A stretch of 64,000 nucleotides of DNA from a virus (taxonomy: Duplodnaviria; Caudoviricetes). A program made the translations under genes and the position numbers. This document shows positions 1 through 5,985 of the stretch, one piece after another (position 1 is the stretch's first letter; each line of letters begins with the position of its first letter). A model generated the notes under the pieces. The model had not been told where the DNA came from. It was given only the letters and a program-made list of their open reading frames with translations, and did not search any database. The DNA lies in IMG/VR virus record IMGVR_UViG_3300010361_000013, positions 1,168 to 65,167 of that record; one strand, written 5' to 3'.

Positions 1-102
1 GATAACATCCCTGGACATGCGCATCTGCTGCGCATTCCGAACCTTGAGCTGATGCCGGATCTCGCCGAGGCTAAGGCACGGCGTGGCCCGCCGGGGCGAT
101 AG
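1..102 (+). CDS. C-terminal fragment of an ORF; candidate TIGR-associated (Tas, Nop-domain) protein
   Basis: Frame 1 reads DNIPGHAHLLRIPNLELMPDLAEAKARRGPPGR*; its TAG (100-102) overlaps the first half-repeat of the array; the GHxH-x3-P motif resembles my recollection of phage Nop-domain C-termini. Confidence 0.45.
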   Translation, partial: DNIPGHAHLLRIPNLELMPDLAEAKARRGPPGR

Positions 103-549
103 CCGATCCCTTGGAGTGTACCGGGTATACAGAGCAAGCGGTGGCCACTGCGGGGAGGCGTCTGGTTCCATGGGCCGGACGTCTCCTTCAGCCTCGAAGT
201 GGGAGAATGCCGTAGCGAATGAGCGAGCCGAAAGTATGGAGTGTGCCGAGAGTTGGGAGCGAGCCGAGGGCAGCGAGCGTGCCGTAATCTGAGAGCGAGC
301 CGAAATAGATGATAGTGACGTGAGGTCAGAGCGAGCCGTGTTATCGGAGGGTGCCGTGGCTCGTGAGCGAGTCGGGGGCTAGGAGGGTGTCGGCGGAGTT
401 GAGCGAGTCGCCGTCCGTGAGGGTGCCGTGGCCGCTGAGCGAGCCGGGCATAGGAAGTGTGCCGGGGTTGGTGAGCGAGCCGCCGTCTCTGAGGGTGCCG
501 TGGATCGGGAGCGAGCCGGAATACGAGAGAGTGTCGGAACGATAGAGCG
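101..549 (+). ncRNA. TIGR-like dual-repeat array 1 (11 units of 36 nt, with a structured insert after unit 1)
   Basis: Alternating GAGCGAGCCG (221,257,293,329,365,401,437,473,509) and GAGNGTGCCG (114,203,239,275,311,347,383,419,455,491,527) at strict 18-nt spacing, with variable 8-9 nt spacers; stop codons in the repeat-phased frames examined. Confidence 0.85.
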
Positions 550-606
550 GTGGCGGGAGGCTAGGGTAGTCGCTGATAGCGGCCATCAGTGCTAGCGTCC
601 CGCCAT
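550..606 (+). other. Long RNA hairpin closing array 1 and overlapping the next start codon
   Basis: gtggcggga (550-558) pairs with tcccgccat (598-606); inner gctag/ctagc and ctgat/atcag; ATG at 605. Confidence 0.65.
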
Positions 607-2542
607 GTCCGCGAGTCTCGGCACGATTCCGTATCCGACCGTCGATCCGACGGAAGATCCGGCCAACCCTCTGACGAAATACCAGAAGCAGCTTGACCCA
701 CTCGCCAAGCTCACGGACCAACTCTGGCAAACCCCGCGCGCCGCGCCGAACGTCGCGCCGATCCAGCCGCCGACCGCAGCGATGTCTCTCTCGCGATTGG
801 CGCAACAGGCCATGACGCCGTCGCAGACCGGCGCGCCGCAGATGGGGATGCCCCTGCCAGAGGTCCCGTCAGAAGCGTCGCGGGCGCCCCCTCCAGCGCT
901 TTCCATGATGCCCGGTGGCTCGGCCTCGCTGCGTGCGTTGGCGGCGCAGGGCGCGCCCGCAGCGCCGTCGTTGGGCGGCTCCGAGGCCCTAGCTGGAACA
1001 TCTGGGGGCCTGCTGGCGGAGGGTGGGCCGACTGACGTCACGCAGTATCGGCAAGATCCCGGCACGGGCGCGATCACGCGCCGTCCGGTCGGTGCTGCCG
1101 CCCGCATGCTGCGGTCCTTGGCGCCCGACGTGCCCGAATATCAGCCCGGCCAACCAACAGCTGCCGAGCCGCCCGCAGAGGCGCCGCGCAGCCGCAGCGA
1201 GGAGCGCATCAGCACGCGCGTGCCATCCGAAGCGGCCCAGAAGGCCCAGGGCATCGACACGCACAGCAGGAGCGATCTGTCGATCGGCCTGCCCAGCATG
1301 AAGGAGGGCAAGGAGGCCTGGGACAAGAACGCCGCGATGATCAAGGCGAACTATCCGGGGTTCCAGAAGCTACGCACCGACAATCCAAACCGGATCAAAG
1401 AGACCTTCATTCAGCACGCTGTCGACAATCTGAAGTTCCTCCACGCCAAGATGACGGAGGAGCATGGGGAGGAGGTCACCCAGCGCGCGGGCAAGTGGTA
1501 CGAGGGCGCCAACAAGATCGCCCATGACTTGGCACAAGAGTTCAATGTCCATCCGCGTCAGGCGGCGGCGGTGCTTGCTGCGCTATCACCGCAGAAGGAC
1601 TGGTACCAGAACGTCGACCTCGCGCGACGGCTGATGGAGATCAACCAGCGTCACGGCGGCAATCTGGTGTTCACGCCGGAAATGCGCACTTACGCCGGGA
1701 AATACATCGATCAGCTGCGGAAGGATGACAAAGACCCCAATACCATCGCTGAACTGGAGCGGCTGAAGACCAAGTTCGAGAACACGCCGCCGAGCGCGCT
1801 GAAGACGCCGTTCGAACAGGCGGTGTGGTCGCGCTGGTTCGATGAAGCGCACAACTCGCGGGACTACAAACTGGTCACCCCGGAGGGCGAGACCGGTGCG
1901 ACCGTCATGGTGCCAGCCAGAATCGGCAAGCGCGGCAACGTGCTGGAGGAAGCCAAGCCCAGGAAGGTAAGTTGGGGATCGTTCAAAGAGATCTCCAAGG
2001 CGATGGAGGCGCTGAAGACGTCCGATCTGCCGACGATCTCGCGGCTGATGGGCGGCAACCACAAGGTGCGCAACTTTTTCAATAACATTATCGCTCCGTT
2101 GCATGGCCACGACGTCACCATCGACACTCACGCGATCGCCGCCGCATTGCTGCGTCCGCTCGGGGCTAAGGCGCTGGAGGTCGGCCACGGCCTTGGGACC
2201 ACGGTCGGCAAGGGCCGGGTCGGAGCGGCGAACAACGCCACCATCGGCAACAAGGGGCTGTATGGGCTGTATGCTGAAGCGTATCGGCGTGCCGCCAAGG
2301 ATCTCGGGATCTCGCCGCGTGAGCTGCAGTCGATCACTTGGGAAGGCGTGCGCGGGCTATTCTCGCCTGAGGACAAGCGGAACGAGGCGTTCGTCAAGCA
2401 CAATGAAAGCATCTGGCGCGGCGATGGTCAATACGCTAAGATGACGAACGACCAGAAGCGGCAGGCGGTTTATGACCACGCGGGCGGCATCAAGGCGCCG
2501 TCTTGGGCAGGAGGCGAGGAGTATGGCGACGACGAGGAGTGA
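605..2542 (+). CDS. Phage protein with a Pro/Ala-rich N-terminus and a C-terminal HhH DNA-glycosylase-like (DUF7178-type) domain
   Basis: 645 aa; motifs AAVLAALSPQKDW, KVRNFFNNI, DVTIDTHA, YAEAYRRAAKDLGISPRELQSITW. Confidence 0.6.
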   Translation: MSASLGTIPYPTVDPTEDPANPLTKYQKQLDPLAKLTDQLWQTPRAAPNVAPIQPPTAAMSLSRLAQQAMTPSQTGAPQMGMPLPEVPSEASRAPPPALSMMPGGSASLRALAAQGAPAAPSLGGSEALAGTSGGLLAEGGPTDVTQYRQDPGTGAITRRPVGAAARMLRSLAPDVPEYQPGQPTAAEPPAEAPRSRSEERISTRVPSEAAQKAQGIDTHSRSDLSIGLPSMKEGKEAWDKNAAMIKANYPGFQKLRTDNPNRIKETFIQHAVDNLKFLHAKMTEEHGEEVTQRAGKWYEGANKIAHDLAQEFNVHPRQAAAVLAALSPQKDWYQNVDLARRLMEINQRHGGNLVFTPEMRTYAGKYIDQLRKDDKDPNTIAELERLKTKFENTPPSALKTPFEQAVWSRWFDEAHNSRDYKLVTPEGETGATVMVPARIGKRGNVLEEAKPRKVSWGSFKEISKAMEALKTSDLPTISRLMGGNHKVRNFFNNIIAPLHGHDVTIDTHAIAAALLRPLGAKALEVGHGLGTTVGKGRVGAANNATIGNKGLYGLYAEAYRRAAKDLGISPRELQSITWEGVRGLFSPEDKRNEAFVKHNESIWRGDGQYAKMTNDQKRQAVYDHAGGIKAPSWAGGEEYGDDEE

Positions 2543-2717
2543 GTTAGAGCCGTTCCGTCAGGGCGATAGCGTGCTGGATCACATGTTGAGCCAGAACATG
2601 CCACTGACGCGTGAGCAGTATATCAGTCTAGCCCACGCGGGGCGGCCACCTGAGCCCTGGACGATGGAGCACGAGAGTGAGATTCCTGAGCCGCTGCAGG
2701 ATGCGAGCAAGGTGTAG
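2523..2717 (+). CDS. Small hypothetical protein, paralogue A
   Basis: LEPFRQGDSVLDHML..PLTREQY...WTMEHESEIPEPLQD; overlaps the stop of the upstream gene; similar to 2796-3017. Confidence 0.75.
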   Translation: MATTRSELEPFRQGDSVLDHMLSQNMPLTREQYISLAHAGRPPEPWTMEHESEIPEPLQDASKV

Positions 2718-2793
2718 CCGTGACCCATGAGAGTGCCGCTAGGATGGAGCGCAGTCGTTGCCCATGAGAGTGCCGCCGATGAAGAGCGAGCCG
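2716..2793 (+). ncRNA. TIGR-like mini-array 2 (2 units)
   Basis: AGCCG(2716)-8nt-GAGAGTGCCG(2729)-8nt-GAGCGCAGTCG(2747)-8nt-GAGAGTGCCG(2766)-8nt-GAGCGAGCCG(2784). Confidence 0.75.
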
Positions 2794-5389: not shown

Positions 5390-5393
5390 GGCT

Positions 5394-5720
5394 GTGAGCA
5401 GGAATTTTGGTAACCTGACTCGTGAAGCGTTCTACAAACATAGATCCCACGCCAAGGCGCGTGGGATCGCGTTCCTATTCACCTACGAAGAATGGCGGGA
5501 TTGGTGGATTGTGGAGCTGACGAGGCGCGGGCCTCGTGCCAAGCGCGGGGTTAAGCGCCACGGGAACTGGGGAATGTGCCGTTTTTTAGATCGTGGCCCG
5601 TATGCACCAGGAAATGTCTATTGTGGCAAGCCGAAGCATAATGCCGCGATGAGATCAGCCTCAGCGCTTTGGCGCGGTGTTTCACGTGAAACACTACAGG
5701 ATCTATGTCCAGTAGTCTGA
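5394..5720 (+). CDS. HNH-like (beta-beta-alpha) endonuclease
   Basis: GIAFLFTYEEWRDWW...MCRFLDRGPYAPGNVYCGKPKHN; GTG start inferred at the end of array 4. Confidence 0.6.
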   Translation: MSRNFGNLTREAFYKHRSHAKARGIAFLFTYEEWRDWWIVELTRRGPRAKRGVKRHGNWGMCRFLDRGPYAPGNVYCGKPKHNAAMRSASALWRGVSRETLQDLCPVV

Positions 5721-5914
5721 TACCGTCGTGTGGCACCTGCCGGTTCGCGCGCCTCGATAAGGAGGGCGAATTGAATTGCTGCCGCCATCCGCCGTTGCCG
5801 TTCCTCGACACCACGGATGAGCCTGGGAAGTACCGGGTGATCAGCGCGTTCCCGGTGGTGACGCCCGAGCTGTGGTGCGCGGAATGGGAGCGGGAAAACG
5901 CGCCCGACGATTGA
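5705..5914 (+). CDS. Small Cys-rich protein (CxxC...CxxxPP...PxV...WCxxW family)
   Basis: CGTCRF..NCCRHPP..FPVVTPELWCAEW; two paralogues at 16102 and 16344. Confidence 0.7.
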   Translation: MSSSLIPSCGTCRFARLDKEGELNCCRHPPLPFLDTTDEPGKYRVISAFPVVTPELWCAEWERENAPDD

Positions 5915-5949
5915 CACCGCCGGTTGCGCGGCTGTCTATATATTGTGGT

Positions 5950-5985
5950 AGCCGATAGATGAGAGAGCACCGCATGAGATGAGCG
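5950..5985 (+). ncRNA. Solitary degenerate TIGR-like unit overlapping the portal start codon
   Basis: AGCCG-atagatga-GAGAGCACCG-catgagat-GAGCG with exact 36-nt geometry. Confidence 0.55.

Follow-up and report, generated by a model that had tools for sequence, protein, structure and literature searches.

We conclude, with a probability of about 0.9, that an uncultured soil phage carries a dual-repeat TIGR-Tas system of the nuclease-free TasA type, with at least 34 guide units downstream of tasA. The window analyzed comprises 64,000 nt (positions 1,168 to 65,167 of the IMG/VR record IMGVR_UViG_3300010361_000013), and coordinates refer to it unless stated otherwise. The conclusion draws on the anatomy of the arrays, the protein's identity and predicted fold, its conserved catalytic pair, the contrast between fixed repeats and full spacer turnover, and the conserved interleaving of arrays with genes. 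TIGR-Tas systems, including dual-repeat TIGR-TasA, were published in 2025 (Faure et al., Science 2025, PMC12045711); the phage system is a further case of this type, and the unusual part is its layout. NCBI's present curated model would give the phage's Tas protein its right name. Two features are apparently undescribed: the start of arrays within the upstream stop codon, and a conserved structured element of ~57 nt at array ends and at some split edge repeats.

The sequence-only reading had proposed about 34 units of 36 nt at five loci, built from two repeats alternating at an 18-nt period. Reading the sequence in 18-nt steps returned the same units and fixed them to the base: 34 units of 36 nt in five blocks (11+2+9+11+1), all on the + strand and within 101–5985. 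Each unit has the layout AGCCG, 8 nt, GAGNGTGCCG, 8 nt, GAGCG. The edge repeat GAGCGAGCCG thereby alternates with the loop repeat GAGNGTGCCG; both are 10 nt long, start with GAG (box D) and end with CCG (box C), and the two 8-nt spacers make up 16 nt of guide in all. Exceptions were one 9-nt spacer and three edge repeats with indels (−4, +1, and +4 nt). When the unit pattern was searched with up to three mismatches, 42 matches were obtained on the + strand at 101–5985 (33 in register and nine half a unit off), compared with 0.09 ± 0.32 in 100 dinucleotide shuffles. The pattern was matched with at most one mismatch by 24 of the 34 units, and the box letters were kept by most edge and loop repeats. 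No further array copies were detected elsewhere in the 65-kb record.

In published dual-repeat arrays, edge and loop repeats alternate, the first edge being truncated at its 5′ end and the last at its 3′ end (PMC12045711). Dual-repeat TIGR is recognized by two alternating repeats of 8–12 nt, spacers of about 9 (8–12) nt, and units of about 36 nt, all of which are present here. At their 5′ ends, the blocks read (T)AGCCG or AGTCG. At the 3′ end, GAGCG and then non-repeat DNA is seen in blocks 1, 3, and 4 and in the single unit, and block 2 finishes on a complete edge repeat. No reading frame is open across an array, and the indel lengths are not divisible by three; the repeats are therefore non-coding, and a coding reading of them was ruled out.

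All features of the region lie on the + strand. The 3′ end of tasA (1–101) terminates in a TAG stop codon (99–101) that overlaps the first half-edge AGCCG, so that array 1a (101–136), a single unit, starts within the codon. A 53-nt hairpin (137–189) then interrupts an edge repeat (GAGCA / hairpin / AGCCT), and ten units follow (array 1b, 190–549; delimited, like the other arrays, by the 18-nt walk and pattern match). A structured element (550–604) comes next, its 3′ arm abutting the ATG at 605 of a DUF7178 gene (605–2542, 645 aa; Pfam PF23802, 1.5e-31), which neighbors the arrays in relatives too and whose protein had no match in the PDB. An 81-aa ORF (2472–2717), with homologues upstream of terL in the relatives reaching this region, ends in a TAG stop overlapping the half-edge of array 2 (2716–2793), which has two units (2716–2788) and a closing edge. 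Its 73-aa paralogue (2796–3017, 58% identity), a duplication specific to this phage, likewise ends in a TAG stop overlapping the half-edge of array 3 (3016–3335, nine units). A second array-end element (3336–3392) stops 9 nt before the start of terL (3402–4913), which encodes the large terminase (phrog_2, 2e-22; 42% identity to cultured podovirus terminases). Downstream are array 4a (4928–4963, one unit), a 61-nt structured element splitting an edge repeat (4964–5024; GAGCG / hairpin / AGCCG), array 4b (5025–5389, ten units), a cargo ORF absent from all relatives compared (5394–5720; phrog_16521), and a small Cys-rich ORF (5705–5914) that relatives also have between their post-terL array and portal gene. 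The single unit (5950–5985) has a closing half-edge GAGCG that overlaps the start (ATGAGCG) of the portal gene (5979–8609; phrog_1216), which is 84–89% identical in relatives. The earlier claim that the array is divided among cargo genes, terL, and the portal start was thus borne out, and the order of arrays and genes is identical in the related contigs that reach the packaging genes.

Whole tasA occupies record positions 1–1268. The record starts after the first 32 codons, and the full length (454 aa) was supplied by a protein 100% identical to the phage's TasA. TasA scored 180 bits (181 on the genome) against the NCBIfam model NF052498, "TIGR-Tas system RNA-guided endonuclease" (cut-off 100). 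The profile of the TasA family matched TaTasR of a Thermoproteota archaeon best among PDB entries (9MTY, 1.1e-18), followed by TasH (1.1e-6) and IS621 (2.5e-4). An AlphaFold model (pLDDT 87) was nearly all helix and lacked any strand element at least three residues long, and the best ten Foldseek matches to it were all TasH or TasR chains (probability 1.00; next match E 0.36). Together with the published array anatomy, the curated model and the TasH/TasR fold uphold the assignment to TIGR-Tas made from sequence alone. The suggested check of the upstream ORF for a Nop domain was answered positively by NF052498 and by the TasR/TasH profile and fold, but the generic Pfam Nop model PF01798 had no match anywhere in the record. 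Neither an HNH nor a RuvC domain was found in TasA by Pfam profiles or in the predicted fold. TasA, judged on its sequence and model, is without a nuclease domain and has a helical N-terminus, which makes it a protein of the TasA type. As for the ParB-like partner of the TasA-TasParB operon type, the record has no ParB_N match, and the neighbor of tasA is the DUF7178 gene.

According to the source annotation, the protein would be an IS110-family transposase, with the repeats unrelated to it. The only Pfam match of TasA was indeed Transposase_20 (1.4e-6), and JGI labels the relatives "Transposase IS116/IS110/IS902 family". This annotation is almost certainly wrong: the match is confined to the shared helix-hairpin-helix part, the N-terminus is helical and gave no separate match to the IS110 RuvC-like N-terminal domain family, the NCBIfam IS110 model NF033542 reached just 26.5 bits against a cut-off of 140 whereas the TIGR-Tas model passed, and IS621 matched far more weakly than TasR.

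The residues Y289 and H296 of SpTasH are catalytic for pre-tigRNA (PMC13421893). They align with Y419 and H427 of TasA, the aligned His being present in 66 of 66 relatives and the Tyr position being occupied by Y, W, or F. By alignment, therefore, the Tyr/His pair with which TasH cuts the guide precursor is kept in the phage TasA. SpTIGR-TasH of the Salicola phage CGphi29 (PDB 9W03, 9W04, 21KL; PMC13421893) resembles the present system in being phage-borne and having 16 nt of guide, and SpTasH was the best structural match, at about 15–17% sequence identity to the phage TasA in Foldseek alignments. It differs in that TasH is a DNA-cutting enzyme with an HNH nuclease at its N-terminus, in contrast to the helical, nuclease-free N-terminus of the phage protein. 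TaTasR shares the Nop domain and the C-terminal loop, but is set apart by its RuvC domain, by spacers of 9 nt, and by UG...CCA boxes.

The same repeats were seen in at least 11 related contigs of soil phages and occur in phages with Tas proteins just 57–66% identical. None of 283 units from relatives matched any unit here better than shuffled spacers did. Across relatives, the loop repeat differs in the middle and the edge repeat is constant there. Box C is CCG in both repeats of L003–L005 and L013–L015 and CCA in both repeats of L007–L010, L012, and the minus-strand array of L011, with weaker agreement in the plus-strand array of L011 and in L016; it covaries between edge and loop repeat among relatives. 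The single unit at the portal start was present, with other spacers, in L005 and L019 and absent from L021, L022, L024, and L025. When eight cargo ORFs of relatives were compared with Pfam, the sole hint was a sub-threshold ART-PolyVal match.

Fixed repeats at this location could in principle work as DNA, as binding sites of a phage protein (a pac site for the terminase, iterons, or a centromere-like array), which would explain their proximity to terL. Of the five blocks, three lie next to terL and the portal gene, and phage pac sites can be repetitive. We nevertheless consider DNA sites highly improbable. In the distant relatives L007–L014, the same array type lies directly beside tas, and no homologues of TerL, portal, or DUF7178 were found in the fetched flanks of these contigs. 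The arrays also follow the exact TIGR grammar, with half-edges at both ends, and every unit lies on the gene strand. Moreover, the repeats are constant but the 8-nt gaps turn over fully, a pattern that suits guides rather than the spacing of protein-binding sites.

Decay is a further alternative to a working guide array: the blocks might be selfish tandem repeats spreading between genes by slippage and recombination, most of them no longer used by TasA. Some repeats are degenerate (e.g., GATAGTGACG and GAGGGTAACG), three edges have indels, and single units are gained or lost among relatives. Similar spacer pairs were also in modest surplus, both here (four vs. 1.1 ± 1.1 expected) and in L005 (16 vs. 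5.8 ± 2.0), which suggests duplication followed by divergence. Decay is improbable, however, given that most repeats keep their box letters, that so many units are within one mismatch of the pattern, that the repeats persist between phages with divergent Tas proteins, that box C covaries between the two repeats, and that contigs from two soil metagenomes sampled in different years, which may be the source of this DNA, have identical arrays.

The conserved element at 3′ array ends extends to the next start codon (within 0–10 nt). Covariation was detected in both array-end copies, at 550–604 (z −4.3; 62 bits under model R1) and at 3336–3392 (z −3.4; 60 bits), and the copy splitting an edge repeat at 4964–5024, found by folding, scored 46 bits. 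The hairpin at 137–189 (−32.6 kcal/mol, z −2.7) scored under the threshold of model R1. Two helices of the element are mutually exclusive, yet both covary. H-type pseudoknots have minimal loop lengths, with which linkers of 0–1 nt conflict, and a true pseudoknot was therefore ruled out on geometry. The strong conserved hairpins after blocks 1 and 3 lack a T run; at the arrays, the + strand yielded no rho-independent terminator in a terminator scan and no match in a promoter consensus scan. A search of Rfam with positions 1–6200 gave nothing at gathering scores and three chance-level matches, none of them on arrays or hairpins.

In phage T7, mRNAs carry RNase III processing hairpins between genes. 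The phage elements may be comparable to these as asymmetric-bulge hairpins between the cistrons of what would be a long phage transcript, but they are tied to TIGR half-edges. A second likeness is to stem-loop TIGR (PlTasA, CsTasR; PMC12045711, bioRxiv 10.64898/2026.09.09.750476), in which a hairpin sits at the edge between box D and box C. In the phage, this likeness is confined to the split edges (GAGCG / hairpin / AGCCG), of which there are one or two per array, the other edges being plain repeats. The phage hairpin further differs from stem-loop TIGR in its two conserved, mutually exclusive inner helices, and the phage Tas is of the dual-repeat type, keeping the Tyr/His loop that stem-loop types lack.

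We searched for targets in the published geometry (spacer A joined to the reverse complement of spacer B) and, for control, in two other geometries (gaps 0–2, up to three mismatches). Of the paired-spacer targets envisaged by the sequence-only reading, no site with 0–1 mismatch was present in the phage's own 65 kb (arrays masked) or in ~243 kb of related phages, and counts at 2–3 mismatches resembled those of the control geometries in both. Perfect sites in four geometries with gaps of 0–15 were likewise absent from the own genome and from ~303 kb of relatives. Single spacer 8-mers occurred in the phage about as often as those of shuffled spacers (122 vs. 128 ± 16), with no sign of avoidance or enrichment. 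Close relatives of Tas were absent from 185,579 species genomes, with distant ones scattered over Acidobacteriota, Gemmatimonadota, Chloroflexota, and others. No Tas match was found in cultured GenBank phages, and the nearest TerL was 42% identical.

From the strand, the spacing, and the lack of promoter and terminator matches, we infer that the guides may be excised from the late packaging mRNA. By analogy with characterized members of the family, one + strand transcript would carry tasA, the packaging genes, and the arrays together. A TasA dimer would grip each edge/loop repeat pair via its box D (GAG) and box C (CCG) ends, and Tyr419/His427 would cut in the middle of the edge repeat, releasing 36-nt tigRNAs (AGCCG, spacer A, loop repeat, spacer B, GAGCG). 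Each tigRNA would lead the dimer to a 16-bp DNA site, spacer A then the reverse complement of spacer B. Because TasA has no nuclease domain, the complex would be expected to bind and block this site, repressing transcription, rather than to cut it. RNA-guided repression by TasA proteins has been demonstrated (bioRxiv 10.64898/2026.09.09.750476).

On a more speculative and unlikely reading, the arrays and end elements could also punctuate the packaging transcript, so that packaging-gene output depends on TasA, and serve as hot spots for cargo genes. TasA would then cut edge repeats just past the stops of tasA and of the ORFs at 2472–2717 and 2796–3017, and the ~57-nt two-state structure would become a new 5′ end before the start codons of the DUF7178 gene and terL. 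At the single unit, TasA would sit on or cut the portal start codon. Cargo genes would enter and duplicate at the arrays.

Among known systems, FpTIGR/FpTasA of Flavonifractor plautii (PMC12045711) is likewise nuclease-free, with a Nop-type Tas, two short spacers per 36-nt unit, and arrays beside tas on the same strand with truncated edges at both ends. The phage system departs from it in having 8+8-nt rather than 9+9-nt spacers and GAG...CCG boxes, in the distribution of its arrays as five blocks that span 5.9 kb and are separated by seven genes (terL and the portal start among them), in array starts within stop codons, and in the presence of the ~57-nt element at the described position of the terminator. 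The authors of TIGR-Tas noted that most loci came from short contigs that lacked context. In the present case, an almost complete phage genome and related contigs show where the guides are located: co-directional with the terminase and portal genes and directly abutting them, in a layout that is constant across the relatives reaching the region while every guide is different. This provides a concrete setting for asking when guides form and whether their processing affects neighboring genes, and the putative two-state RNA element at the ends of arrays offers a new, defined target for structure probing.

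Two 10-nt repeats, GAGCGAGCCG and GAGNGTGCCG, alternate over the opening 6 kb of the window with a strict period of 18 nt, each being followed by eight variable bases. Together they form 34 TIGR units (AGCCG, spacer A, GAGNGTGCCG, spacer B, GAGCG), all on the plus strand: 11 in block 1 (101–549), two in block 2 (2716–2788), nine in block 3 (3016–3335), 11 in block 4 (4928–5389), and a single unit at 5950–5985. The alternating 36-nt units described in the sequence-only reading were thus confirmed, its counts being reproduced exactly at every locus. With up to three mismatches allowed, the unit pattern was matched 42 times (33 in register, nine half-shifted), compared to 0.09 ± 0.32 times in shuffled sequence; all 42 matches were on the plus strand within 101–5985, and no array-like repeats were found elsewhere in the 65,167-nt IMG/VR virus record, of which the window comprises bases 1168–65167. 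A coding reading of the arrays was rejected: no reading frame was open through any of them, and the few changes in array length were of −4, +1, +1, and +4 nt. G+C content was 51% in the spacers vs. 62.7% in the genome. Similar spacer pairs were modestly more frequent than expected, which hints at array growth through duplication followed by divergence.

The open reading frame (ORF) ending at position 101 begins at the first base of the record. An identical protein on a ~69.4-kb Logan contig carries 32 additional N-terminal residues (P0002, 454 aa), and thus the record is cut inside tasA. The record is rated 100% complete, yet starts within tasA (G000:C1:1) with 32 codons missing. As one to four additional arrays lie upstream of tasA in relatives, 34 units is a lower bound for this phage. 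The whole record contains one tas gene; no ParB gene was found in it.

P0002 passed the curated NCBI model NF052498 ("TIGR-Tas system RNA-guided endonuclease"; 180 bits, cut-off 100) and failed the IS110 transposase model (26.5 bits vs. a cut-off of 140). A profile of 66 relatives, compared with the PDB, matched TaTasR (9MTY, 1.1e-18), SpTasH (1.1e-6), and the IS621 recombinase (2.5e-4). The AlphaFold model of P0002 (mean pLDDT 87) was almost wholly helical and contained no strand element reaching three residues in length; in a fold search against the PDB, its best ten matches were all TasH or TasR chains (probability 1.00), the next match having an E-value of 0.36. The sequence-only reading had proposed a search of this upstream ORF for a Nop domain: the curated model and the TasH/TasR folds bear the expectation out; the generic Pfam Nop model gave no match. 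As neither domain search nor predicted fold revealed an HNH or RuvC domain, P0002 is predicted to be of the TasA type. The residues with which SpTasH cuts pre-tigRNA are Y289 and H296 (PMC13421893), and Y419 and H427 of P0002 align with them. Histidine is invariant at the latter position among the 66 relatives; the former is occupied by Y, W, or F. Residues 232–304 of P0002 constitute a mostly helical insertion of ~70 residues between the FAGLDP and KRPWN motifs, which is missing from many relatives (tblastn alignments skip from residue 199 to 272 in the numbering of the 422-aa form).

Dual-repeat TIGR arrays, as defined by Faure et al., possess two alternating 8–12-nt repeats and ~9-nt spacers, open on an edge repeat truncated at its 5' end and close on one truncated at its 3' end, and change their box C and box D letters jointly in both repeats (PMC12045711). 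Every anatomical feature of this definition was present in the phage arrays. The opening sequence of the blocks is (T)AGCCG or AGTCG. GAGCG terminates blocks 1, 3, and 4, as well as the single unit, and gives way to other sequence; block 2 ends in a full edge repeat. GAG begins and CCG ends each of the two repeats. In a set of 13 related viral contigs, box C was CCG in both repeats of L003–L005 and L013–L015. In L007–L010 and L012 it was CCA in both repeats, as it was in L011's minus-strand array; L016 and L011's plus-strand array showed a weaker consensus. Across these contigs the middle of the loop repeat varied and the edge repeat was constant. Taken together, the model score, the fold matches, and the fully matching anatomy support the initial TIGR-like interpretation, the system being of the dual-repeat TIGR-Tas kind already published in 2025 and covered by the curated model.

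The search for Tas relatives yielded >2,600 proteins at E ≤ 0.001. The close relatives comprised 11 distinct viral contigs (among them L003, L004, L005, L015, L018, L019, L021, L022, L024, and L025; L023 and L020 were second fetches of L003 and L005), with Tas 57–66% and TerL 79–87% identical to those of this phage. Relatives reaching the region share a common order: arrays, tasA, array, a ~600-aa gene that this phage lacks, the DUF7178 gene, small ORF, array, terL, array, small Cys-rich ORF, sometimes a single unit, and portal. The interleaving of arrays with packaging genes is no peculiarity of this genome. None of the 283 units from relatives was more alike to the 34 units here than shuffled spacers were; by this sequence comparison, repeats and array positions are conserved and guides wholly different, a pattern that guide arrays, but not protein-binding sites, would be expected to show. 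Two soil metagenomes, from 2017 and 2018 and possibly the source of this DNA, contained identical arrays; no RNA run was found to contain the sequence. Other contigs from the same samples join the arrays at repeats (positions 293 and 5093) and run on into TIGR-like repeats whose spacers differ, so that the same soil harbours related arrays together.

Some array borders overlap stop or start codons. An array starts inside the preceding stop codon of tasA (TAGCCG), of an 81-aa ORF (TAGCCG), and of its paralogue (TAGTCG), as also happens in relatives, there also as TGAGCCG. The unit at 5950–5985 terminates in ATGAGCG, the portal start; a unit with other spacers is placed likewise in L005 and L019, and L021, L022, L024, and L025, in which it is absent, read AGCC|ATGAGCG. 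Neither arrangement seems to have been described in the TIGR-Tas literature. Gene content varies at these borders. In this phage only, the small ORF is duplicated (2472–3017), its tandem copies being 58% identical and separated by the two-unit mini-array; it is single-copy in relatives, which suggests recombination at array repeats. A phrog_16521 ORF (5394–5720) between block 4 and the conserved Cys-rich ORF was absent from all the relatives compared, and this phage lacks the ~600-aa gene that relatives carry. In L005 (6940–8850) that gene stands after the post-tas array and before the DUF7178 gene and matched ART-PolyVal, an ADP-ribosyltransferase domain found in polyvalent phage proteins, below threshold (E-value 0.009, 17 bits vs. 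a cut-off of 31). Proteins following arrays begin alike: MSASLGTIPYP in the DUF7178 protein (605–640), MSAALSALPMGG in the portal protein (5979–6014), and MSAALGTIAYP in the 636-aa protein of L005 (6940–6980). The likeness could have arisen by chance, through a common N-terminal signal, or as a relic of recombination.

A conserved structured element of ~57 nt comes directly after the GAGCG that closes blocks 1 (550–604) and 3 (3336–3392), and interrupts the edge repeat (GAGCG, element, AGCCG) that follows the opening unit in blocks 1 (137–189) and 4 (4964–5024), always on the plus strand. Relatives carry it as well (L003:16877–16938, L004:7123–7182, L005:13192–13250, L019:7932–7991, and others). 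A 19-copy alignment resolved a 13-bp outer stem enclosing helices X:X' (6 bp) and Y:Y' (8 bp), whose strands alternate as X, Y, X', Y'. Paired cells amounted to 91%, compared to 64% when shuffled and 36–44% with partners slid, and two-sided changes occurred in 25 of 27 pairs, in all three helices. Linkers are 0–1 nt long, and thus X:X' and Y:Y' cannot coexist; RNAfold forms one or the other, depending on the copy, and the element may be a two-state RNA. A covariance model, slightly biased towards array ends by its GAGCG prefix, matched only beside arrays, on the plus strand, and in the close clade, with no matches away from arrays in the 64-kb window; it also recovered copies outside its training set (L003:16877, L022, L024, and L025). 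At 3' array ends, the 3' arm stops 0–10 nt ahead of the next start codon. The element had no match in Rfam, and an element tied to TIGR half-edges seems undescribed in the TIGR-Tas literature.

By analogy with family members already characterised, a TasA dimer would bind the repeats and cut the pre-tigRNA within edge repeats, and each 36-nt guide would lead TasA to a 16-bp site reading spacer A followed by the reverse complement of spacer B, a geometry that we derived from the published 8-nt 3' overhangs. In reporter assays, nuclease-free TasA proteins repress transcription (bioRxiv 10.64898/2026.09.09.750476). Neither the phage's own genome nor ~300 kb of related phage DNA yielded a guide target with any geometry tried, and spacer 8-mers were not avoided in the phage genome. 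Consensus scans found no promoter or terminator matches on the plus strand at the arrays, which, with the shared strand and flush spacing, suggests that arrays may be co-transcribed with the packaging genes. The merit of the system lies in its context, a nearly whole phage genome with guide arrays built into its packaging-gene junctions, and in the conserved, putatively two-state RNA element at the array ends.
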